Shown: positions 15,744 to 35,579 of the stretch, in pieces
How the letters are laid out: each line of letters opens with the position of its first letter
How positions within the stretch are numbered: the stretch's first letter is position 1
NCBI GenBank assembly: GCA_963755715.1
Contig: CAVWLW010000020.1
Coordinates: 1-35,579, forward strand
Direction of reading: 5' to 3'
Origin: an uncultured delta proteobacterium
GTDB taxonomy: Bacteria > Desulfobacterota > Binatia > UBA9968
DNA: 35,579 nt
Program-made: the position numbers and the translations under genes
Notes under the pieces: generated by a model
The model's input: only the letters and a program-made list of their open reading frames with translations
The model's database searches: none
Told to the model about the DNA's origin: nothing

Positions 15744-15772
15744 TTGACTTTGATTCAGGCGCACGGTAATTA
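15744..15772 (+). promoter_or_regulatory. Putative pyr operon promoter
   Basis: TTGACT, 17-nt spacer, TAATTA; the implied start at about 15779 lies just before the PyrR-binding hairpin. Confidence 0.45.
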
Positions 15773-15782
15773 AGTCACAGTA

Positions 15783-15817
15783 ACCTTTTAATTCGATCCT
15801 GCGAGGTCGAAAAAGGG
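15783..15817 (+). ncRNA. PyrR-binding loop (anti-antiterminator) of the pyr leader RNA
   Basis: CCUUUUAA-UUCGAUC-CUGCGA-GGUCGAA-AAAGG: U-rich lower stem, CNGNGA hexaloop and near match to the ARUCCNGNGAGGYU consensus, directly upstream of pyrR. Confidence 0.85.
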
Positions 15818-15856
15818 CGTCATGACAAAATCCATTCAACAAATCATATTCGCTCG

Positions 15857-15891
15857 AAGACCCTCCCGGTGATCCGCGAGGGTCTTTTTTT
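15857..15891 (+). terminator. Attenuator terminator of the pyr leader
   Basis: AAGACCCTC-C-CGG...CCG-C-GAGGGTCTT hairpin with a T7 tract ending directly at the pyrR ATG. Confidence 0.85.
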
Positions 15892-16443
15892 ATGGCCGAG
15901 ACAAAGAAAATTCTGCTGGAGCGCGCCGATCTTGCGAAAGCCGTCCATCGGATGGCGCGCGAGATCGTCGAGAAATGCGCGGCGCCTAGCGAGTTGGTGC
16001 TGATCGGCATTCGCTCGCGCGGGGTCCATTTGGCGCGACGCTTGGCCCGTAAGATTGAGGAAATCGACAAATTCACGCCGCCGGTTGCCGTGATCGACGT
16101 CACGCCGTACCGCGATGATCGGAGGCAAGAGCAAGACGGAGCGATGGTTGGCGCGATCGAGATTCATGCGGCGGTCGATGACAAAACGATCGTGTTGATC
16201 GACGACGTAATTTTTCGCGGCCGCACGATCCGGGCGGCGATGGAAGCGGTGGAGCGGATTGGCCGGCCCAAGCGCATACTGGTCGCCGCACTGATCGACC
16301 GCGGCGCCCGGGAGTTGCCGATACGCGCCGATATTGTCGGCAAAAACATCGACGTTGGTGCTGGGAAGAGAGTGAACGTGCTCTTGGAAGAAGCGGATGG
16401 GATCGATCAGGTGAATCTTGCTGATTGGCAAGAAAAAAAGTGA
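15892..16443 (+). CDS. pyrR: Pyrimidine operon attenuation protein PyrR (standalone copy; altered PRPP loop)
   Basis: HRMAREIVEK, LIGIRSRGVHLARRL, IDVTPYRDD, VLIDDVIFRGRTIRAA, LIDRGARELPIRADIVGKN. Confidence 0.93.
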   Translation: MAETKKILLERADLAKAVHRMAREIVEKCAAPSELVLIGIRSRGVHLARRLARKIEEIDKFTPPVAVIDVTPYRDDRRQEQDGAMVGAIEIHAAVDDKTIVLIDDVIFRGRTIRAAMEAVERIGRPKRILVAALIDRGARELPIRADIVGKNIDVGAGKRVNVLLEEADGIDQVNLADWQEKK

Positions 16444-16466
16444 CTTAAGTTGAGATATTTAAAGCG

Positions 16467-18416
16467 ATGCGTAGCTTGATTTCGATCGCCGATTTGACCA
16501 ACGAGGAAATCGAAGAGATTTTTTCTCTGGCGGACGAGGCGGAGCAATTGCGCGCCGCCAGACCGGCGAGCGGCCAGATCATGGCTACTCTTTTTTACGA
16601 ACCGAGCACGCGCACCCGTTTATCATTCGAGTCGGCAATGCAGCGCTTGGGCGGCTCGGTGATCAGTTGTTCGGACATGAAATCATCGTCGACGGCAAAA
16701 GGTGAAACGGTTGCGGACACCGCCAAAGTCGTTTCGAGCTACGCCGACGTTTTGGTGGTGCGGCATAATTGGGACGGCGCAGTGCAGGCGATGGCCGAGC
16801 ATGCCGACGTGCCGATCATCAATGCCGGCGACGGCGGCCACGAACATCCGACCCAAACACTGTGCGACCTTTACACCTTGCGCAAAGAGAAGGGCGAGCT
16901 CAAAGGGCTGACGGTGGTCGTTTGTGGCGATCTAAAAAATGGCCGGACGATTCACTCGCTGGTGTTCGCGCTGGCGCGTTTCGGCGCCCACGTCGTCACT
17001 TTGGCCGCGAGCGGCATGGAGTTACCGCAATATGTGATCGAGCGTCTGGAGCGCGAATACGGCTACGGCCTGGCGCCGGTCGCGTCGAACGACTTGAGCG
17101 CGGTGGTAAAGGAAACCGATGCATTGTATTTAACGCCCAAGCAGCCGCACCAGTTGGCGCTTTTCACGCAAGTTGACGAAGTCATTCAAGCGCGGCTGAA
17201 CACGATGGCGAGCGGATTGCGCTATGACGCCTTCTACATGACGCGGAAACAAAAGGAGCGCATGAAGGAAGGCACGAACGACGCCAGCTATCCGACGATC
17301 GGCGCGGCTTTTCTGCGCGAGCAGCGTTTTCAGGACACGGTGGTGATGCATCCGCTGCCGCGCGTCGACGAGCTGTCCCCCGAAGTCGATAAAGATCGGC
17401 GTGGAATATATTTCAAGCAGGCGGCTTACGGCGTGCCGGTACGCATGGCGCTGCTCAAGTTTCTCTTCGACCGGCGCCACGAGACGATGCCGCGGTCCAG
17501 GGGAGCGGCGATTTCATACGAAAGTCCCGAAGCGATTGGCCCGCAATGTCGCAATCCGAATTGCATCACGTCAAAAGAGCCGCTGTCCGCGCCGAAACGC
17601 TTCGAGCTTTTTGCCATCGGCGAGAGCGGCTCGGTGATCTTGGGTTGCAAGTACTGCGATCACCGCTTCAAGGTGCAATACGTTGGCAACGTCGCCGCGA
17701 AACGATACTGCTCCTACGATAACACGCTCACGAGCAATCTAAAGGAGTGGTTGAAGAAAGACGAGTTGGCGATCTTCGACTCGATCAAAGAAGCCGAGGA
17801 GCTGGGCTACGAGCCTTTCAAAAGCGGACCGCAACGAGTCTTGATGGGCGAAGCGGAAATCAAACAGGCGTTGGTCGAGATGAGCGGCCGCATACTGAGC
17901 GATTGCCGCGACGCCGATCGCTTGTTGATCTTGGGTGTGCGCAGCGTCGGATCACAATTGGCGCAACGGCTGGCGATGGAAATCACAAACCAGCGGCAAC
18001 GCAGACCGGAGCTCGGCGAGATCGACATCTACGGCAGCGAAGAGCTGCGCCGGTTAAATCCGGCCGATCCTGACGCCGGGCCACTCAACCTGAAAGACCG
18101 CGAAGTGATTCTTGTCGATGACGTTATTTACACCGGCCGGACGGTCCAGAGCGCGCTGAGCATTATCTTTCGCTCGGGCCGACCGCAGTCGGTGCGTCTC
18201 GCGGTGTTGATCGACCGCGGCCATCGCGAAGTGCCCATGCGGCCGAATTACGTCGCGAAAAATATTCCCAGCTCGGAAACAGACCGGGTGCGGGTCAAGT
18301 TGCGCGGGCTCGATCAGGAAGAGCGCGATCAAGTCGTGATGTATTCGCTCATCAGCCCGGTCGCCGGTTCGCAGCCATTTGCAGCAGCCGGCGATGAAAA
18401 ACCGGCGGCTAAGTAA
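16467..18416 (+). CDS. pyrB: Aspartate carbamoyltransferase catalytic chain fused to a PyrI zinc domain, an Ada-like small domain and a C-terminal PyrR/PRTase domain
   Basis: aa 1-335: [51 protein letters not shown]. aa 361-397: CRNPNCI...CKYC. aa 405-452: YVGN...[14 protein letters not shown]. aa 456-628: [27 protein letters not shown]. Confidence 0.92.
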
Positions 18417-18420
18417 TTTC

Positions 18421-19587
18421 ATGAAAGCGATCCTAGCATTGGCGGACGGCCGAGTTTTCGAAGGCGAATCCTTCGGAGCTGAAGGCGAAGCCTTGGGTGA
18501 AGTCGTATTCAACACGAGCATGACCGGTTACCAGGAGATCCTCACCGATCCGTCCTACGAAGGCCAGCTCGTCGCCATGACCTATCCTGAGATCGGCAAC
18601 GTCGGAGTGAATCCCGAGGACGTAGAATCGCGCCAGCCGTTCATGAACGGCTTCATCGTCAAAGACTACACGCCGCAACCGAGCAACTGGCGCGCTGCCC
18701 AGCCGCTGCACGAATACATGAAAGCTAACGGCATCGTCGGCATCCAAGGCATAGATACGCGCTCACTCGTTCGCCATCTGCGCGATCAGGGGTCACAAGA
18801 AGGCGTGATTTCGACATTGACCGGCAACGCCGATGAGCTAGTCGCGAAAGCGAAAAATTCGCCGGGCTTGATCGGACTGGATTTAGTCCGCGAGGTATCT
18901 TGCAGCGAAGCGTACGACTGGCATCAGGGTATGTGGCAGCTCGAAGACGGCTACAAAGAGCGCGATGGCTCGAAGACCATGTCCAAGCCCAAAAGGAAGG
19001 GAACCTTTGGCGCGCCGGCATTTTTTGTCGTCGCCTACGACTACGGCATCAAATACAACATTCTGCGCAATCTCGCCGAGGCCGGCTGTCGAGTCAAAGT
19101 CGTCCCAGCAGCGACGCCGGCGGAAGATGTTTTGGCATTCAAGCCGGACGGAATTTTTCTCTCCAACGGGCCCGGCGATCCCGACGCCGTGCCCTACGCC
19201 AAAGAAAATGTACAAAAATTGATCGGCAAAAAACCGGTCTTCGGCATCTGTCTCGGCCATCAGATCATGGGCCTCGCGCTCGGCGGCAAAACTTACAAGC
19301 TCAAGTTCGGCCACCACGGCGGCAATCAGCCGGTGATGGATCTCACCACGCGCAAGGTCGAGATCACGTCGCAGAACCACGGCTTCGCAGTCGACGCCGA
19401 TTCGCTCAAAGGCGCGGCCGAAGTCACGCATCTGAACCTGAACGACAACACGGTCGAAGGCCTGGCGCATCGCGAGCTGCCGATCTTTTCGGTGCAATAT
19501 CATCCGGAATCTTCGCCTGGTCCGCATGACGCCGATTATCTGTTCAAGCGCTTTACCGATATGATGGCAAAATATCGAGGCAAATAA
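18421..19587 (+). CDS. carA: Carbamoyl-phosphate synthase small subunit
   Basis: [54 protein letters not shown]. Confidence 0.97.
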
Positions 19588-19593
19588 CGACCC

Positions 19594-22839
<3,246 letters not shown>

Positions 22840-25763: not shown

Positions 25764-28343
25764 ATGGAAACCGCCAAAGTCACGCCGATGATGCGCCAGT
25801 ATCTGCAAATCAAAGAGCGCCACCGCGACGCCATCTTGTTCTTCCGTCTCGGTGATTTTTACGAAATGTTTTTCGAAGATGCCCACACTGCGTCGAAGAT
25901 TCTCGATATCGCGTTGACTTCCCGCAACAAAACCGAAGACGGTTCGGTTCCCCTGTGCGGCGTGCCGTACCATGCCGCCGATCCGTATATTCAAAAGCTC
26001 CTCGATGCGGGCCACAAAGTCGCCGTTTGCGAGCAGGTCGAAGACCCGGCGACGGCCAAGGGCGTGGTCAAACGCGAAGTCGTGCGGGTAATCACCCCGG
26101 GAACCGTTACCGCTGCAGAGGCGCTCGATGCGCGCGGCAATAATTTTTTGGCGGCGGTGTGCAAGGGATCGAACGGCCTCGGCTTGGCTTTGACCGATAT
26201 CACTACCGGCGAATTTCGTTTCACCGAAATCGCCGACGATGCGGCACTCTTCGACGAGCTCGGGCGCATCCATCCGAGCGAGTTGTTGCTGGCGAGCCGC
26301 GACGGTCGGCTGCGCGAACGTCTCTATAAAGAATATCCGCTCATTCATTTCAGCATGATCGGGGACGAGCTGTTTGACGACGACGCGCGGAGCCGAATTA
26401 GGGCTGACGCCGATGTCGATGCGCAAGCCAGCGTCGAAGGCGTGCGCGCCGCATCAGCGATCCTCGGCTACCTGGAGGCGAACGCGCCGGAGTCGCTCAA
26501 GTTGATCGGCGCTCTCGAACCTTATCGCCTGTCCAGTTATCTTGTCCTGGATGAAACCACTCGAGCGAATCTCGAGCTCACCGCCAACTATCAAGGAGAC
26601 CGGCGCGGCTCGCTGTTGTCCATCCTCGATTGCACGTCGACTTCACTCGGCGCGCGCCGGCTACGGCGTTGGCTCTTGTATCCCTTGCTCGATCCGAAAG
26701 AGATCGGCGCGCGTCATGACGGCGTGCAAGACTTGGTGGATCGCTTTGCGCTTCGTCAAGAGTTGAAAGTCGGTCTGCGAAAAATCCAGGACCTGGAACG
26801 ATTGGCGGGACGAGTCGTTTCGGGCAGCGCTTCACCCAAAGACCTGATTGCCATCAGAGAAACCTTACATGCCGTCAGCGCGCTTCGCTCCCAGCTCGAT
26901 GCCATCGAGGCGCCTATTCTTACGGCGCTGCGCGACGACTTGGCCGATCTTCCTGCGGTCGTCGATCTGATCGAACGCGCCATCGTCGATGATCCGCCTT
27001 TCTCGATCAAAGACGGTGGCTTCATCCGCGCCGGTTTCGATGCCGAGCTCGATGAGATCCGCGCCATTCGCACCGACGCCAAGGAATGGATTCGACAATT
27101 TGAAGCGAGCGAGAAACAACGCACCGGGATCCATTCGCTGAAGGTGCGCTACAACCGCGTCTTCGGCTACTACATCGAAGTGACCAACTCCCAGCTGAGG
27201 TCGGTGCCCAGCGATTACCTGCGCAAACAAACGCTGTCCAATGGCGAGCGCTACATAACGCCGGAGCTGAAAGAGTACGAAGCCAAGGTGCTCAACTCGG
27301 AAAGTTTGATGGAAAAGCTCGAGACCGCGCTACTCACGCAGGTGCGAGAGGAAGTCGCGAGTCATTATCCGGCCTTGAAAACCGTCAGCGACGCCGTGGC
27401 GGTGCTGGATGTTTTGGTTTCGTTGGCCGAAGTGGCCGAGGCGAACCATTTCACTCGGCCGCTGATCAACACGAGCGCGCGCTTATCGATCCGCGAAGGG
27501 CGCCATCCCGTGGTGGAATCGGTGGTCGGCCGCGGCGCGTTTGTGCCCAATGATTGTCTGATCGATCCCGACTCGCAACAAATCATCCTTCTCACCGGGC
27601 CCAATATGGCGGGCAAATCGACCTACATGCGCCAGGTGGCGCTGAGCGTGATTCTCGCGCAGATGGGCAGTTTTGTCCCCTGTGCCGAGGCGTGTATCGG
27701 TGTCGTCGATCGTATTTTTACACGCATCGGCGCCGCGGACTCGTTGAGCCGCGGCGAATCGACGTTCATGGTCGAGATGAAAGAGACTGCGAATATTCTC
27801 CGTCACGCAACCGCCCGCAGCCTGATTTTGCTCGATGAAGTGGGACGCGGCACCAGCACTTTCGACGGGATTTCGATTGCCTGGGCCGTCGCCGAATCGT
27901 TGCACGACGTCGATTGCCGGCCGCGCACGCTTTTTGCCACCCACTACCATGAGCTCACCGACTTGGCGCAAACCAAAGAGCGGATCAAAAACTATAATTT
28001 CGCTGTCAAAGAATGGCGTGGCGAAATTATTTTTCTACGCAACCTCATCGAAGGCGCGGCGAGCCACAGTTACGGCATTCACGTGGCGCGCCTGGCGGGC
28101 ATGCCTCCGGACATCATCGAACGCGCCAAGGAAATCCTGGCTCGCTTGGAAGGCGCCCGCGACGGTCATCAAAACGTGGAACCGGGCAACCGATCCGCGA
28201 GCACTGCACCGGCGCAGATGGGTCTCTTCAACTCCACCGACGACCGATTAGGCGATCGTCTGCGCGATTTAAATCTCTCGACGATGACCCCCCTCGAAGC
28301 GATGAACGTTCTCCATCAGTTGATCGAAGAGGTCAAAAAATGA
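25764..28343 (+). CDS. mutS: DNA mismatch repair protein MutS
   Basis: TPMMRQY, FRLGDFYEMF, GRHPVVE, TGPNMAGKSTYMRQ, GESTFMVEM, LDEVGRGTST, FATHYHEL, SYGIHVA. Confidence 0.98.
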   Translation: METAKVTPMMRQYLQIKERHRDAILFFRLGDFYEMFFEDAHTASKILDIALTSRNKTEDGSVPLCGVPYHAADPYIQKLLDAGHKVAVCEQVEDPATAKGVVKREVVRVITPGTVTAAEALDARGNNFLAAVCKGSNGLGLALTDITTGEFRFTEIADDAALFDELGRIHPSELLLASRDGRLRERLYKEYPLIHFSMIGDELFDDDARSRIRADADVDAQASVEGVRAASAILGYLEANAPESLKLIGALEPYRLSSYLVLDETTRANLELTANYQGDRRGSLLSILDCTSTSLGARRLRRWLLYPLLDPKEIGARHDGVQDLVDRFALRQELKVGLRKIQDLERLAGRVVSGSASPKDLIAIRETLHAVSALRSQLDAIEAPILTALRDDLADLPAVVDLIERAIVDDPPFSIKDGGFIRAGFDAELDEIRAIRTDAKEWIRQFEASEKQRTGIHSLKVRYNRVFGYYIEVTNSQLRSVPSDYLRKQTLSNGERYITPELKEYEAKVLNSESLMEKLETALLTQVREEVASHYPALKTVSDAVAVLDVLVSLAEVAEANHFTRPLINTSARLSIREGRHPVVESVVGRGAFVPNDCLIDPDSQQIILLTGPNMAGKSTYMRQVALSVILAQMGSFVPCAEACIGVVDRIFTRIGAADSLSRGESTFMVEMKETANILRHATARSLILLDEVGRGTSTFDGISIAWAVAESLHDVDCRPRTLFATHYHELTDLAQTKERIKNYNFAVKEWRGEIIFLRNLIEGAASHSYGIHVARLAGMPPDIIERAKEILARLEGARDGHQNVEPGNRSASTAPAQMGLFNSTDDRLGDRLRDLNLSTMTPLEAMNVLHQLIEEVKK

Positions 28344-29722
28344 CGGTACGAAAGCAGATCACGATGAAGAAAGCAAAGATTTGTTCGTCCGTTGTGCGCG
28401 GTGGTTTCTGCGCGCTCGTAATAGTCGCGTCCTTGCTCTCGATCCGTCCCGCCTGGGCGCAGAGCCCAAAGGGCAGCACGGCAAAGGAGCTAAATAAAAC
28501 AGATGCGACGCGCGCGGCCGGCGACCTTTCGCAGCGTGTCGATGAAAGGAAGAACAACGATGAAACGTCCCTGGGCCCGCCGGCTGACAAAACCCTAGTG
28601 ACCGGCTTGAGGTTTCTTTCTTCCAAGGCTACGACGAGAATCCTCCTTGAACTGTCGCAGGAGAGCAAGTATGAAATCCGCCGTCTGAAAGAAGATCCGG
28701 GGAAAGGCATACCGCCGCGCATTTACATCGACATTTTGGGCGCGAAGCTGGCGCTTACATCACGGGATCCGGTGCCTGCCGACGACGGCCTGCTGCGCCA
28801 GGTTCGTCTCGGCCAATATAGCGCCGATGTGGTGCGCGTTGTCCTCGATATGCAGAGCCTCGGCGCGCACAACGCATTTCTTCTTACGGATCCGTACCGT
28901 CTGGTCATCGAGCTTCAGGGGCAAAAAGGCCAGGAGCGAGTGTTGACTAGTGAGCCGGCCGCAAAAGTGGAAGCGACGGCGAGCCGGCCTATGGCGCAAG
29001 CGAAGAAACCCAACTCCACGGCGCCGGCCGTGAGCAATCTGCGCAAGATAGTTTTGGATCCGGGGCACGGCGGCAAGGACCCGGGCGCGATCGGCGCCGG
29101 CGGCTTGGCGGAAAAAGACGTGGTGTTGAGCATTGCCAAAAAGCTCGCCGTCAAACTCAAGAATGAAATGGGAATCCAGGTTGTCTTGACGCGTCAGGAT
29201 GATCGTTTCGTGGCCTTGGAAGACCGCACCGCGATGGCCAACGCCGAGAATGCCGATTTGTTCATTTCGCTGCACATGAACGCCAGCCTCAATGCCGAGG
29301 CAAGGGGCATCGAAACTTATTATCTTGACAACACCACCGACGAAGCTGCGATGCGCCTGGCCGCGCGCGAAAACGCCGCGTCGCGCAAGAATATTTCCGA
29401 TTTACAGTTTATACTGAGCGATATGACGCAAAATATGAAGCTCGAGGATTCGATTACCCTGGCACACAGAATCCAGGGGGCGCTCGTCGGCGGCATGAGC
29501 AAAGTCATGAGCGATGTCAAAGACCTGGGTGTGAAGCAAGCGCTTTTTTATGTTCTGGTCGGCGCGCGCATGCCCAGCGTCCTGGTGGAAATGTTTTTTA
29601 TCACCCATCGCACCGAAGGCCGGGCCTTGAGCCTGGCGAGTTACCAAGACTCCATGGTGGAAGCCTTATTCGAAGGTATCCAAAAATACAGTCAATCGAA
29701 CCTCATGGTCAAAACGCTTTAG
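28340..29722 (+). CDS. N-acetylmuramoyl-L-alanine amidase (AMIN plus Amidase_3, AmiC-like)
   Basis: ATGA overlap with the mutS stop; signal peptide; PPRIYID, VRVVLD and PYRLVIE (AMIN); IVLDPGHGGKDPGA, EKDVVL, FISLHMNA, PSVLVE. Confidence 0.92.
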   Translation: MTVRKQITMKKAKICSSVVRGGFCALVIVASLLSIRPAWAQSPKGSTAKELNKTDATRAAGDLSQRVDERKNNDETSLGPPADKTLVTGLRFLSSKATTRILLELSQESKYEIRRLKEDPGKGIPPRIYIDILGAKLALTSRDPVPADDGLLRQVRLGQYSADVVRVVLDMQSLGAHNAFLLTDPYRLVIELQGQKGQERVLTSEPAAKVEATASRPMAQAKKPNSTAPAVSNLRKIVLDPGHGGKDPGAIGAGGLAEKDVVLSIAKKLAVKLKNEMGIQVVLTRQDDRFVALEDRTAMANAENADLFISLHMNASLNAEARGIETYYLDNTTDEAAMRLAARENAASRKNISDLQFILSDMTQNMKLEDSITLAHRIQGALVGGMSKVMSDVKDLGVKQALFYVLVGARMPSVLVEMFFITHRTEGRALSLASYQDSMVEALFEGIQKYSQSNLMVKTL

Positions 29723-29733
29723 ATGAATATTTC

Positions 29734-32448
29734 ATGGACGCTGTAGCCATCTCGCTGGCGCTGCTCGACCAGGTGCAAACCGAGCATGATCTCAAACGTT
29801 TGACGCGCCAATACGTCGATCACGGCCGGCGCACTCTTTTCGAGCGACACCGCGCAGGCGCAGACGGCTTGGAGATCGTCTCGGCATGGTCCACCGTGAT
29901 GGATCATCTGATTCGCCATTTGTTCACCCAGATCAGCGCCCAACACACCAGTCAGTTTCCCGCGCCGAACCTGCGTTTCGCTCTGGTCGCTCAAGGCGGC
30001 TATGGCCGGGGCGAGCTCAATCCCCAGTCAGACATCGACCTCTTATTTCTCTACGGCTGGAAGGTTTCACCCTTCGTCGAATCGGTCACCGAAAAGCTGC
30101 TTTACACCTTGTGGGACGCCGGTCTTCAGGTCGGCCACGCCACCCGGAGCATCGCCGAGTGCGTGCGCCTGGCGGAAAACGACATGAAAGTGCGCACATC
30201 CTTGCTCGACGCGCGTTTTCTTTGCGGCGATTATCCGCTCTACCAAGATTTCGAAAAGCGCGTCGAGTCGCGTCTGGTCAAAAACGGCGTCAAGCGCTTC
30301 ATCCGCGAAAAGCTCGAGGAGAATCGCGCCCGTCACGAACAGTTCGGCGGCTCGGTCTATTTGCTCGAGCCCGAGGTCAAAGAAGGGGAGGGCGGGCTGA
30401 GGGATATTCAAACCGCCCGCTGGATCGCGCGCGCCAAGCTCAAAGCCAAGGATCTCGACGCGCTCGCGCTCAACGGCGTGGTCAGCGCCACCGATATCGC
30501 CGCTTTGAAAGAGTCACAGGATTTCTTGCTGCGGGTGCGCAATGAATTGCACTTTTCCACCGGTAAACATCAAGACCAGCTGACCTTCGAGCACCAAGAA
30601 AAAGTAAGCTCGGCGCTGGGCTTCGAGGGTGAAGGCGCCTTGCGCGGCGTCGAGGTCTTCATGCGCAGCTACTATCTGCACGCGGCGCAGATTAACCGGC
30701 TATCGACGCTGATCGTGCACCGAGTGACCGACTGCGACAAGCCACGCTTCGGCGCCACCTATATGTTCGGCCGCACCTTGCGCGAGGGGATTCGCCTCTC
30801 AAAGGGACACGTGACGGTGACCAAACCCGAGGTTATCAGAAGCAGTCCCGAAAATCTCATCCGTATTTTCGACGACGCGCAGAAATATAACTGCCAATTG
30901 ACGCACGAAACCCGCGAATTGTTGCGCCAGCATTTGGATTTGATCGACGATGATTTCCGCCGCTCGGCGGAGGCCAACCTGCCGTTTTTCAATATCCTTA
31001 AATGGAAAGAATCGGTCTATGAGACCCTGATGGAAATGCACCGCGCCGGCGTTTTGGGCGCGCTCATTCCCGAATTCGGCCGGCTGCTTTGCATGGTGTT
31101 GCACGACGCTTATCACATTTACACGGTGGATCAGCATTCGCTGCGCTTGATCAAAGAGATCGAACGGTTGAAAGCCGGCGATTACGCCGAGAGCCTGCCG
31201 CTGCTCACCCAACTGGCGCGCGAAGCCGAGAAGATCGAGCTGCTTTATCTCGGCTTGATGTTTCACGATATCGGCAAGGGTTTCGGCGGCGGTCATTCGG
31301 AGATCGGCGCGCGCATGGTGCATTCCATCGCGCGGCGCATGCGTCTGAACGCCGACGATGGCGCCCTGGTCGAGTTTCTCGTGCGCCACCATTTGCTAAT
31401 GACCCACACGGCGTTTCGACGCGATTTGGAAGATGAAAAGACGATCTTCGATTTCGCCAAGACGATGGGCAGCGTCAATAACTTGAAGATGCTCTACTTG
31501 CTAACCTTTGCCGACGTCAAAGCCGTCGGCCCCGAGGTCTGGAATCCCTGGAAAGCGTCGCTGCTGGGCGAGCTTTACATCAAGGCGCTCAATCTCTTGG
31601 AAGAAGCCGAAAAAGGAGAATTCGAGCGCCAGGATATTCGCGCCGCGCTGCGCCGTGTCCAGACCCGAGTGCGCCGGCAATTGTCCAAAGACTACGACGA
31701 GGAGAGAGTCGAAAAGTTTATTGAGGCGATGCCCGAGCGCTATTTCCTGTTGACTCCCGAAGACGATATCGCCGAGCATTTCGAGCTGATGGATAGCTTT
31801 CGCGATAAGAGAGCGGAGTTGTCGGTGCAGCACTTTCCCGAGCGCGACTGCAGCTCCGTGGTTGTTTGCAGCCAGGACCGTCCAGGATTATTCGCGTCGA
31901 TTACCGGCGTTTTCACCGCGCTCAATTTCGACATTCTCAATGCGCGGATTTTTACCGCCAACGACGGTCGTATTCTCGACGTATTTCGCATTTCTCATCA
32001 CGGCCGCCCCGAAGTTGTCATGGCCGAGCAGAAATGGGTCAAATTTCGCGCGGTTCTGGATGGCGTGTTAGACGGTAAAATCGATATCGCCCACCTGGTG
32101 GGATCGTTTAAGCCTTCGCTGCTGTTTAGAAACGGGCGCCGAAAGTCTCCACCGCAATCAATATCGACAACGAGGCTTCGGACGGTTTTACCATCGTCGA
32201 GGTTTTTACCGAGGACCGGATCGGCGTTCTTTTCACCATCACCTACAGCCTGCACCGGCTTGGCTTGTCGATTCACGTTGCGAAAATATCAACTAACGTG
32301 GATCAGGTGGGGATGTGTTTTATGTCACCGATCACGCCGGCGGAAAGTCATCGAGCCGGAGCAGGTCGAAACCGTGCGCAAATTTCTCCATCAGAATCTT
32401 GCTCCCCAAAATGACACAAGCGAAAGATTTGCTGAGCCCGCCAGTTGA
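29734..32448 (+). CDS. glnD: [Protein-PII] uridylyltransferase/uridylyl-removing enzyme; three compensating frameshifts garble the last ACT domain
   Basis: [54 protein letters not shown]. Alternate frames at about 32130-32345 read [24 protein letters not shown]...KIST and then DVFYVT. Confidence 0.95.
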
Positions 32449-33357
32449 CGCCTTTCTGGCGATGGCGGCCGTGGAAAAGGGCCTGGCGAAAAATACCATC
32501 GAGGCTTACGGTCGCGATTTAGCCAAGCTCCTGGACTATCTAGAATCCCAGCGGGTAACGTCGTGGAGCGAGGTCGATTCGATGCGGATTCGCACTTTCA
32601 TCATTTCTCTCCGCGCCGCCGGCCTCGGTCCTAAAAGCATCGCGCGTCACGCGGTGAGCGTGAGACGGTTGTTTTTGTTTCTCGAAAGCGAAGGGCAGGT
32701 CAAGGATAGTTCTATGCCCAACGTGTTGTTGCCGGCGGCGTCACGAAAGCTGCCGCAGCCGTTATCGGGCGACGACATCCGCAAGCTGCTAGCCGAGCCC
32801 GATGCATCGCGGTCGCTCGGCGCGCGCGATCAAGCCATGTTGGAACTCTTGTACGCGACCGGCTTGCGCGTATCGGAACTCGTCGCCCTTGAGACTCGGC
32901 ACATCAGTTTTCAAGGCGATTATCTGACGATCAAAGGGAAGGGCGCCAAAGTCAGGGCCGTGCCTTTCGGCAGATGGGCGCGGGAAAAGCTCACGCTGTA
33001 TATCAACGAGGTGAGGCCACGGCTCTTGAAGGGCGTCTCCAGTCCGTTCGTGTTTACCAACCGTTCGGGAAAACGCTTGAGCCGGCAAGGCTTCTGGAAG
33101 CTTATACGCCGCTATGCGCTGACGGCGGGGATCGATAAGCGCGTGACGCCGCATACCTTGCGCCACTCTTTTGCAACCCACCTGCTCGAAGGTGGCGCGG
33201 ATTTAAGATCAGTACAGGCGATGTTGGGCCACGCGATATTTCGACGACGCAAATCTATACTCACGTCGATGGCGCGCGCCTAAAAAAAATACACCGCGAA
33301 CATCATCCGAGAGAGCGAAGCGGCACAAAGAAAAGGATTAATGGAGTGACGGAGTGA
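32411..33357 (+). CDS. xerD: Tyrosine recombinase XerD; 1-nt deletion at about 33234
   Basis: [75 protein letters not shown]; the shifted frame gives [11 protein letters not shown]...HHPR to TGA 33357. Confidence 0.93.
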
Positions 33358-33503: not shown

Positions 33504-34172
33504 TTGGAAGAAACAATCCGTCAAATCGCGATTTGGGCGCTACCTGTTTTGGTCGCAGTCGTGTTTCATGAAGTCGCCCACGGTTGGGTGGCGTACCGGC
33601 TCGGTGATTCAACCGCTGCGCGACTTGGCCGATTGACGCTCAATCCTTTTGCTCATGTAGATCTATTTGGCACGATTCTGTTGCCGCTGATGTTGATCGT
33701 CACCCACGCGCCTTTTGTGTTTGGCTATGCCAAACCGGTGCCGGTTAACTTTCTCAATTTGCGCAATCCCAAACGCGATATGATTTGGGTTGCCGCGGCT
33801 GGACCGGCAATGAACTTGGCGCTGGCGTTTGTTTGCACGGTGATCTGGAAGTCGCTTGCGCCGATGCTGGACGCACGGCCGGACCCAGCAGCGGGATCGG
33901 CGGCCGGCAATTACGTCACGGCGATTGTGTTGATGGCTCAGAGCGGGATTTTGATCAACGTCGTATTGGCGGTGTTCAATATGTTGCCGTTACCGCCGCT
34001 GGATGGCGGGCGGGTTTTGGTCGGCTTGCTGCGTGCGCTAGCGGTGAAATTGGCGCGCATCGAGCCTTTCGGCTTCATCATTCTGATCGTATTGCTGATG
34101 ACGCATACTTTAAACCCCATCATCCATCCACCGACGGAGTTCTTGTTGAAGCTTTATTTGCGTGCGTTTTAG
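33504..34172 (+). CDS. Site-2 protease family (M50) zinc metalloprotease
   Basis: [42 protein letters not shown]; TTG start. Confidence 0.92.
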
Positions 34173-34185
34173 CTTCGGGCAAATT

Positions 34186-35177
34186 ATGGAAACCATCGTC
34201 AGCGGTATGCGACCCACGGGACGCGCTTTACCTGGGCCATTTACACGGCGCGCTAAAAAATTGGCTGAAGCTGCAAGAACAATATCAGTGCTACTTTTTT
34301 GTCGCCGACTGGCACGCCCTGACGACCGACTACGCGAGCCCCCAAGGGATTCAGCAGAGCACTATCGATATGGTGATGGAATTCCTGGCCGTACAGTATT
34401 CCGGTCTCGACCCGGCGAAGTCCGTCTTGTTTCGCCAATCGCGGGTCAAGGAACACGCCGAGCTGCATCTGCTCTACTCGATGATTACGCCGGTGCCGTG
34501 GCTCGAACGCAATCCAACTTATAAGGAACAGCTCAAGGAAATCGTCGGCAAGGATTTATCGACCTACGGTTTCCTCGGCTATCCGGTTTTGCAGGCGGCC
34601 GATATCACGATTTACAAAGCCAACAAAGTTCCGGTCGGCGTCGATCAGGCGCCTCATGTCGAGCTGACCCGCGAGATCGTGCGGCGATTCAATCAGCTTT
34701 ACCAGCCGATTTTCCCCGAGCCGGAGGTTTTGCTGACCGAAACGCAAAAGATGCCGGGGCTAGACGGCCGCAAGATGAGCAAGAGCTACGGCAACGCGGT
34801 GTTTTTATCGGACACGCCGAAGGAGATCGATCAAAAGCTCAGCCGCATGATGAACCCACCCCGCTCGCGTACGACGCACCGATCCGGGCGAACCGGGGAA
34901 AAAGTGTCCGGCCTTTCAACTGCACAAGATTTATTGCACTCCCGAGGAAATCGCCCAGGTTTCACAAGGCTGCCGAAGCGCCGGCATCGGCTGCCTGGAA
35001 TGCAAAAAAATTATGATCAAGCACGTGATCGAGGATCTGGCGCCGTTTCGCGAGAAGCGCGCGCATTATCAGGACAAGCCGGGCGAGGTCGAAGAAATAC
35101 TCGAGTCGGGAACCCGACAGGCGCAAAGCGCCGCCGCGGCGACCATGACCGAGGTGAGAGGAACACTAGGGCTGTGA
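34186..35177 (+). CDS. trpS: Tryptophan--tRNA ligase; several frameshifts (about 34225 and about 34855-34900)
   Basis: SGMRPTG, LGHLHG (HIGH region damaged), [40 protein letters not shown], and a C-terminus ending EVRGTLGL*. Confidence 0.93.
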
Positions 35178-35579
35178 GCACGCGCGTCCAATTGGAATTT
35201 TTCGAAGGCCCCTTGGATCTCTTACTTCACCTGATCAAGAAAAACGAGGTCAGCATCACCGATATCCCGATCGCGACGATCACCGAACAATATCTGGGGA
35301 CGTTGGAATTGATGGAAACTTTTAGCCTCGATGTAGCCGGCGAGTTTCTCGTCATGGCGGCAACGCTGATCCATATCAAGTCGCGCATGCTCCTACCGGC
35401 CGGAGACGAGGAGAGCGATGACGACGAGGCTGGGATCGACCCGCGCGATGAATTGGTGCGCCGCTTGTTGGAGTACCAGCGTTACAAAGACGCGGCCACG
35501 GAGCTGGAGCAGCGCGAGATTTTGACGCGCGACGTGTTTGTGCGCGCCCCACCGCCGGCGGAGGAGAGCGGCCCGCGCG
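35174..35579 (+). CDS. scpA: Segregation and condensation protein A (kleisin), 3' end outside the window
   Basis: GTGA overlap with the trpS stop; [53 protein letters not shown]. Confidence 0.93.

Follow-up and report, generated by a model that had tools for sequence, protein, structure and literature searches.

Two PyrR paralogs in a Binatia pyrimidine operon, one standing alone and one joined to aspartate carbamoyltransferase through a PyrI-type zinc domain

Why should one pyrimidine operon encode two copies of the regulator PyrR side by side, the first as a protein of its own and the second as the C-terminal part of aspartate carbamoyltransferase (ATCase)? The question is raised by contig CAVWLW010000020.1 (assembly GCA_963755715.1) of an uncultured delta proteobacterium, a soil bacterium of the Binatia (Binatota), which was analyzed as one window of 35,579 nucleotides (nt); all positions refer to this window, and the operon and its leader lie on the forward (+) strand. 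A standalone PyrR of 183 residues (15892..16443), termed S in the following, precedes a fusion open reading frame (ORF) of 649 residues (16467..18416), in which domain matches delimit a PyrB part, a PyrI-type zinc domain, a 53-residue linker, and a PyrR-like domain termed F′. Residues of both PyrR copies are given in the numbering of S. We favor, at a probability of roughly 0.55, two-level control by the two paralogs, in which S would serve as the attenuator of the operon and F′ as an allosteric sensor on ATCase; in the operon pyrR-pyrB::Zn::pyrR′-carA-carB, the two would not need to touch. A preceding sequence-only reading of the locus had viewed the copies as an RNA-binding and a ligand-sensing partner with complementary losses. 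Both ORFs and every motif that it quoted are present as described, except that it let the fusion end at position 18350, which is 66 nt short of the real end at 18416.

Conserved motif sets of the two PyrR copies

S matched the NCBIfam PyrR model NF003549 with 191.2 bits (cutoff, 138) as well as the Pfam Pribosyltran domain, and it aligned end to end with the PyrR chains in the PDB at E values of 3e-43 to 1e-32 (1non, 3e-43; 1a3c, 6e-40; 1ufr, 8e-40). F′, which comprises residues 456 to 620 of the fusion (17832..18326), passed the same model with 144.5 bits, and its profile matched PDB PyrR chains with an E value of 3e-42.

The pair is not confined to the window. A search with the zinc domain and F′ alone yielded 480 length-matched proteins, the best 120 of which are 65 to 95% identical to the query; 107 of these 120 comprise 640 to 670 residues, mostly 645 to 652, and most of them carry the same four Pfam domains. 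Scanning one genome per species gave 38 loci, mostly labeled as Binatia or "delta proteobacterium" metagenome-assembled genomes, with four labeled as other phyla; the nearest locus (L001), 95% identical, is labeled as Candidatus Binatia. In 32 of the 38 loci, the gene immediately 5′ of the fusion encodes a full-length S. In three others (L021, L027, and L022) the contig end truncates S or a frameshift interrupts it, three start inside the fusion without upstream sequence (L003, L025, and L036), and among the loci having upstream sequence S is missing in none. Altogether, the relatives of the fusion form hundreds of sequence clusters in two deep clades, the second of which has the same architecture and comprises 69 clusters that are less than 50% identical to the C-terminal part of the window protein. 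The pair is therefore a conserved system and not an accident of one contig. The fusions of the second clade (among them proteins P0226 and P0381 to P0446) are approximately 636 to 640 residues long and feature DDVIN[TS]GWT and DRGHR[QA]; some of them are encoded on contigs of 0.76 to 7.0 Mb.

Proteins of the PyrR family assemble into dimers or tetramers, and their PRPP site accepts uridine mono- and triphosphate (UMP and UTP), guanosine monophosphate (GMP), and phosphoribosyl pyrophosphate (PRPP). Following standard knowledge of type I phosphoribosyltransferases, we take RSRG/SRG to be the pyrophosphate (PPi) loop, RDD the catalytic flexible loop, and TGRT the 5′-phosphate loop, and residues T18, R19, H22, R27, R141, R146, and K152 of Bacillus subtilis PyrR are reported to bind RNA. 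For SRG, a role in RNA binding is not established. In the window, S contains HRMARE (residues 19 to 24), SRG (42 to 44), YRDD (73 to 76), DDVIFRGRT (104 to 112), and DRGA (136 to 139), whereas F′ contains DDVIYTGRT (551 to 559) and DRGHRE (583 to 588, both in fusion numbering). These motifs were followed through an alignment of 33 S and 36 F′ copies, the window included, with positions 20 and 43 of F′ being read from 31 listed copies; the background was formed by 143 PyrR representatives of at least 160 residues, selected among the 5900 hits that S gave as the query of an exhaustive search.

The nucleotide site of S is invariant in nearly every position, while the overall identity among the S copies drops to 50%. 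Specifically, RDD, DDVI, and GRT are present in all 33 copies, the PPi loop RSRG deviates solely at R41 (32/33), and of DRG.RE the residues D, R, G, and R occur in 33 copies and E in 32. In the N-terminal helix, R20 is found in 33 of 33 copies and H23 in 31, being replaced by arginine in the window and in L001. Two positions depart from the usual PyrR sequence. Position 109 is arginine in 29 copies and threonine in 4, and position 139 is alanine in 22, serine in 6, aspartate in 3, and glutamine and glutamate in one each, with histidine in 0 of 33. The codons of the window are CGC for R109 and GCC for A139, each two substitutions away from a threonine or histidine codon, respectively, as had been noted before, and the earlier argument that such differences are unlikely to be read errors is borne out by their conservation across the 33 S and 36 F′ copies.

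F′ presents another picture. Residues D104, D105, V106, G110, and T112 are kept in all 36 copies and R111 in 35, position 109 is threonine in 34 and serine in 2, and DRGHRE, including His139, is complete in 36 of 36. The flexible loop, in contrast, reads G[DE]E in place of RDD, position 74 being glycine, aspartate, alanine, or a gap in 35 of 36 copies. Neither Arg20 nor Arg43 occurs in the 31 copies listed, position 43 being mostly V, K, A, or Q, and the residue corresponding to H23 of the helix is variable (R, G, E, or Q). The deep clade, although only about 40% identical to the clade of the window, repeats this pattern, with DDVIN[TS]GWT in 68 and DRGH in 67 of 69 sequences. The view that F′ lost features expected of an RNA-binding and catalytic PyrR but kept the 5′-phosphate loop and DRGH was thus supported. 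In its motifs F′ deviates at places where the PyrR family is otherwise uniform, and with RDD, Arg43, and the helix residues gone, we class it as PyrR-derived and not as a functional PyrR.

This classification bears on the possibility that the fusion is a bifunctional enzyme combining ATCase with an active uracil phosphoribosyltransferase (UPRTase) for salvage. Two sources ascribe UPRTase activity to the PyrR family (PMC6524683, PMC7430163). F′ also scores above the cutoff of the NCBIfam PyrR model. The flexible loop that it lacks is nevertheless kept almost without exception among the representatives (R74 in 143/143, D75 and D76 in 142/143 each), and together with the loss of Arg43 from the PPi loop this makes an active salvage enzyme very improbable.

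For S, the family background leads to the opposite assessment. The change of tyrosine to phenylalanine in DDVIFRGRT, which had been listed as an alteration, is natural variation, with 81 representatives having tyrosine and 55 phenylalanine at this position and B. caldolyticus PyrR belonging to the latter. Position 139 is histidine in 111 of the 143 representatives and another residue in 32 (glycine in 15, leucine in 6, and various others in the rest); the lack of His139 in S is ordinary variation, shared with many PyrRs that cannot be expected to rely on a fusion. Among the departures of S, Arg109 alone appears unusual: the representatives have threonine in 116 cases, serine in 20, arginine and histidine in 3 each, and lysine in 1, and two of the three arginines come from the S clade itself. 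The four S copies with Thr109 (L026, L032, L035, and L038) are the four most divergent ones, and all of them adjoin a fusion, three with a full-length F′; Arg109 therefore arose after the pair of S and fusion had been established. An idle site should have diverged in the way that the loops of F′ did, yet the site of S stays invariant at 50% identity, which is why we read S as a still ligand-competent PyrR, possibly still a UPRTase and perhaps one with a changed effector preference. The claim of complementary losses consequently stands in one respect and falls in another: the copies are paralogous PyrR modules with different, conserved motif sets, but the losses are lopsided and lie on the side of F′, as S has kept DDVI, GRT, RSRG, RDD, and DRG.RE.

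The same data can be set against the alternative in which S has lost ligand sensing and F′ RNA binding, and both hetero-oligomerize, so that ATCase would act as a trigger enzyme or "anti-PyrR." S dimers could, for example, dock on F′ dimers in the manner of PyrR tetramers, with the nucleotide load deciding between sequestration and release. This alternative would accommodate the constant adjacency of S and the fusion, the rarity of Arg109 in the family, the distribution of His139 (0/33 in S versus 36/36 in F′), and the dimers and tetramers seen in PDB entries of PyrR proteins, and it has a precedent for the sequestration of an RNA-binding attenuator in TRAP and anti-TRAP. In B. subtilis, anti-TRAP sequesters the RNA-binding attenuator TRAP (PMC6524683). 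The invariant PRPP/nucleotide site of S is hard to square with an idle site, however, residues other than histidine are common at position 139, four S copies next to a fusion still have Thr109, and the features of the fusion described below indicate coupling of F′ to the enzyme itself; we consider hetero-oligomerization improbable. Slightly more doubtful still is a specific form of it, in which F′ dimers on the holoenzyme would capture S dimers and bury their RNA-binding face, and nucleotide bound to F′ would release S. If this were true, the activity of the first committed enzyme and the transcription of its own operon would both be set by a single sensor on that enzyme, and Arg109 and the absent His139 would mark a weakened effector site of S.

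Regarding the origin of the pair, S and F′ are 28 to 37% identical, and S shares 36 to 49% identity with most of the listed PyrR representatives. The trees comprised 11 of the 31 S/F′ pairs and 72 of the 143 representatives, every other one being taken. In both a quick and a careful tree, S and F′ each formed a clade with 100% support on a long stem, and they were not sisters; their neighbors were weakly supported (58/55 and 66/66), and long-branch attraction may affect the placement. A tree forcing S and F′ together was not rejected (p-AU, the P value of the approximately unbiased test, 0.936 versus the quick tree) and its likelihood was close to that of the careful tree. A local duplication thus does not emerge from the free trees, but joining the copies is acceptable; a duplication in the ancestor of the lineage is compatible with the data, which neither show nor reject it.

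Architecture of the fusion protein

In the existing annotation, the fusion is called "aspartate carbamoyltransferase catalytic subunit" or "PyrR." A protein atlas yielded no usable match. Pfam matches cover OTCace_N (residues 2 to 139), OTCace (up to residue 332), PyrI_C (360 to 402), and Pribosyltran/PyrR (456 to 620). The catalytic part (residues 1 to 336, 16467..17474) scored 298.4 bits against TIGR00670 (cutoff, 236.95), and in 83 sequences STRTR, R99-H100, HPTQ, R160, R260/Q262, and HPLPR, which we take to be the catalytic residues of PyrB, are invariant. Its best matches in the PDB were PyrI-associated ATCases, namely 2rgw of M. jannaschii (253 bits), 1ml4 of P. abyssi (249 bits), and the E. 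coli enzyme (approximately 210 bits), compared with 142 bits for 2at2 of B. subtilis; the catalytic part is closest to this class B type.

The aspartate-binding domain of PyrB contains an insertion of about 30 residues (residues 222 to 253, 17130-17225), located between DALYLTP and DAFYMTR. All 100 fusions compared, from both clades, have it at a length of 29 to 32 residues, and the solved ATCase structures in the alignment lack it. The insertion resembles a partial repeat of the flanking motif (DALYLTP/DAFYMTR).

Approximately 25 poorly conserved residues separate PyrB from the zinc domain (residues 358 to 402, 17538..17672), which contains Cys361, Cys366, Cys394, and Cys397. It matched PF02748 (PyrI_C) with 33.2 bits (cutoff, 23.4), and its profile matched ATCase regulatory chains around residues 101 to 148 (E value, 0.004). 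The four cysteines are invariant in the 83 sequences and in 69 of 69 sequences of the deep clade. The N-terminal allosteric domain of PyrI, which binds cytidine and adenosine triphosphate (CTP/ATP), was not found in the fusion by the Pfam scan (E ≤ 0.01). The linker that follows (residues 403 to 455, 17673..17831) gave no Pfam or PDB match; it spans exactly 53 residues between zinc domain and F′ in all 100 fusions and contains an invariant helix motif. After residue 620, the end of F′, the C-terminal tail that leads to the stop codon (18327..18416) is poorly conserved, with no conserved columns in the alignment. The short proteins that came into question as a natural split form, with zinc domain and PyrR′ on a separate chain, were contig-end fragments or started inside the zinc domain, and none was clean.

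In PyrI, contact with the catalytic chain is made by the zinc domain, and the allosteric domains pair into dimers. The zinc domain had not been weighed in the sequence-only reading, and it leads to a simpler role for F′, namely that of an allosteric domain of the enzyme itself. Coupling of F′ to the enzyme may be the task of the linker, whose fixed length, together with the constant PyrB insertion, suggests that the quaternary structure is defined and that F′ is not loosely tethered.

A fixed linker would also suit F′ as an assembly scaffold only, which dimerizes to hold catalytic trimers together and does not sense any ligand. There is a parallel for this in that inactive paralogs are known as structural ATCase subunits; in the class A ATCase of Pseudomonas, an inactive dihydroorotase-like subunit holds the catalytic trimers together. 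The loss of the catalytic loops of F′ likewise fits a scaffold, whereas the retention of the 5′-phosphate loop, the DD pair, and DRGH over two clades that are about 40% identical is unexpected for a pure one. We rate the scaffold as unlikely, although it ranks first among the alternatives.

Leader RNA and neighboring genes

If S is the attenuator, a target RNA is expected ahead of pyrR, and such an RNA is predicted in the leader. A −35-like hexamer of the operon promoter, TTGACT, is located at 15744..15749; a consensus promoter scan did not call a full promoter there, so that the site is promoter-like only, and TTGAC was seen by eye at the homologous place in most of 31 loci. Downstream follows the predicted PyrR-binding hairpin, CCUUUU..GAUCCUGCGAGGUC..AAAAGG (15784..15816). 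The Rfam model RF00515 (PyrR binding site) matched positions 15780-15892 in E-value mode with 52 bits and an E value of 5.7e-6; as the gathering score of the model is 54, the run over the window at the gathering threshold gave no match. Among the 28 loci scanned, the homologous site reached 54.1 to 67.5 bits in 9, and matches occurred only upstream of S, with no other RF00515 site in these loci. The minimum-free-energy fold contains both the hairpin (15784-15816) and a terminator (15859-15891). RNAalifold, applied to 32 aligned leaders, kept 17 pairs, 10 of which show compensatory changes, including within the hairpin the pairs 26-43 (CG in 18 leaders, UA in 8, and UG in 6) and 29-40 (AU in 28 and GC in 4). 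The cognate RNA site that had been proposed for S at this place thus has support from RF00515 and from compensatory pairs, and the role of operon attenuator is the best reading of S.

The hairpin also sets limits to the idea that F′ still binds RNA, for example in an enzyme that autoregulates translation of the operon mRNA. R140, K/R145, and K151, which correspond to positions reported as RNA binding in B. subtilis PyrR, are indeed kept in F′. The equivalents of R20 and H23 of the N-terminal helix have given way to acidic or neutral residues, however, the window holds one copy of the PyrR loop motif and no second one was found in it, and the RF00515 matches in the other loci belong to S; of all the alternatives, this one is the least credible.

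Between hairpin and terminator lies a leader ORF of 16 codons (15822..15872) that the sequence-only reading had left unmentioned; it encodes MTKSIQQIIFARRPSR and has its stop codon inside the terminator loop; the 3′ arm of the hairpin holds its Shine-Dalgarno-like sequence AAGG. Its start codon is located 9 to 12 nt, mostly 11 to 12 nt, past the hairpin motif and is ATG in 31 and GTG in 1 of the 32 leaders. Over the stretch between start codon and terminator arm, all 32 leaders are free of stop codons in frame 0, compared with 1 leader in frame +1 and 17 in frame +2. Leader ORFs of 15 to 18 codons that stop in the terminator loop occur in 26 of 33 loci, and changes in length are in-frame (two additional codons in L013 and one codon less in L017). 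The intrinsic terminator (15859..15891) consists of a stem of 11 positions with one C-C mismatch, a UGAU loop, and a run of seven U residues. A terminator scan called its inner stem of 5 pairs alone, whereas RNAalifold retained the outer stem with compensatory changes. The U-run abuts the ATG of pyrR, and the 3′ arm contains GAGGG, the likely Shine-Dalgarno sequence of pyrR. Together, these elements suggest leader-peptide-coupled attenuation and not the antiterminator scheme of Bacillus.

Downstream of the fusion, carA (18379..19587; Pfam CPSase_sm_chain and GATase) is listed as an ORF starting with TTG at 18379, although its N-terminal sequence makes ATG at 18421, right after the stop codon of the fusion, the likelier start. 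It is followed by carB (19594..22302), which is broken into at least three frames, CPSase_L domains being distributed over ORFs 19594-21408, 21122-21649, and 21646-22302; 20 related loci have an ORF of 1076 to 1194 residues, typically 1079, at this position, and carB is also broken in L022 and L034. The split could stem from indel errors in the assembly or from decay of the gene. Farther downstream, mutS (25764-28343) and an AMIN/amidase ORF (28013-29722) share approximately 330 nt, and a 598-residue ORF (33785-35578) with TrpRS/TyrRS-class and ScpA domains overlaps an M50 peptidase ORF; the odd overlaps in 25764-29722 and 33504-35578 are probably further assembly frameshifts. The split carB and these overlaps mean that the contig carries indel errors or decay. 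Despite this, the pyrR and fusion ORFs are full length and match their relatives throughout. A tyrosine recombinase (Phage_integrase and a SAM-like N domain; 32315-33283) that follows a GlnD-like gene could be XerC/D rather than part of a mobile element. Neither pyrI nor pyrC nor upp is present within the window.

Proposed two-level control and its relation to known systems

In the proposed mechanism, S loaded with a uridine nucleotide would occupy the hairpin of the leader (15784-15816). This would keep the leader ORF untranslated, so that the terminator would form and transcription would stop before pyrR. With S off the RNA, a ribosome on the leader ORF would melt the 5′ arm of the terminator and allow read-through, a state that would also free the GAGGG of the 3′ arm for translation of pyrR. 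F′, for its part, would be a PyrR copy that gave up RNA binding and UPRTase catalysis and kept the pocket for the ribose-5′-phosphate. Tied to the class B-type ATCase via the PyrI-type zinc domain and a rigid 53-residue linker, it would take the position that the PyrI allosteric domain has in E. coli ATCase. It probably dimerizes and thereby would bridge catalytic trimers, and from its retained motifs we infer that it relays its occupancy by a nucleotide (UMP or UTP, perhaps GMP or PRPP) to the catalytic sites.

Several points weigh against this proposal. S carries Arg109, which is rare in the family, and never His139, so that its effector response may be altered or lost. The strict adjacency of S and fusion would equally suit a physical partnership. 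For F′, nucleotide binding is suggested by the retention of motifs, and in the deep clade tryptophan replaces Arg111 of GRT. The basic residues mentioned above, R140, K/R145, and K151, are reported RNA-binding positions that F′ still keeps, and the mean net charge (−0.2 for S versus +1.8 for F′) does not discriminate between the copies.

Only a few ways of regulating ATCase, a textbook allosteric enzyme, are known: by PyrI, by a partner in the form of an inactive dihydroorotase, or without any such subunit. A PyrB-Zn-PyrR fusion was not described in any paper that full-text literature searches turned up. Of the systems that invite comparison, TRAP and anti-TRAP offer an analogy solely for hetero-oligomerization and are not homologous. 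S is a full-length relative of the Bacillus PyrRs (1a3c and 1non) with an RNA of the RF00515 type and differs from them in Arg109 and the lack of His139; F′ belongs to the same fold family and differs in the lost RDD, Arg43, and helix residues and in its fusion to an enzyme. Unlike the Bacillus leader, that of the window has one site and a leader ORF instead of an antiterminator. For a Thermus strain, Van de Casteele et al. (1997) reportedly found that PyrR blocks translation of a leader peptide and that the untranslated leader is terminated. The pyr leader of Thermus likewise is reported to have a PyrR site next to a short leader ORF that runs into a terminator before pyrR; the lineage differs.

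The fusion shares with the PyrB-PyrI fusion (NF009916) the arrangement of catalytic and regulatory parts in one chain, but it scored 89.7 bits against a cutoff of 800 and has PyrR′ instead of the PyrI allosteric domain. The likeness to the class B ATCases of E. coli and archaea, composed of PyrB and PyrI, extends further: their catalytic domain is the closest, the four-cysteine zinc domain is that of PyrI_C, and a regulatory nucleotide-binding domain would in both cases be joined through this zinc domain. The fusion differs from them in being one polypeptide that is devoid of the PyrI allosteric domain, with the PyrR-derived domain, of the phosphoribosyltransferase fold, placed after and not before the zinc domain, with the insertion of about 30 residues in the aspartate domain, and with a 53-residue linker of no known family. 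Binatia and their relatives would thus have kept the zinc adaptor of PyrI and exchanged its nucleotide module for a copy of the RNA-binding regulator of the operon. Should F′ sense uridine nucleotides, nature would here have swapped a domain and thereby rewired feedback from CTP/ATP to the effector set of PyrR, and the fusion would be a clear example of how the paralog of a regulator can be recruited as the allosteric domain of an enzyme. The system allows a direct test of the interchangeability of allosteric modules on the ATCase scaffold, and also of whether a paralogous sensor and attenuator still interact. The fusion is a variation on class B ATCase regulation and on the PyrR family, both of them known, and does not form a new category; within these, it is probably a new way to place ATCase under feedback control.

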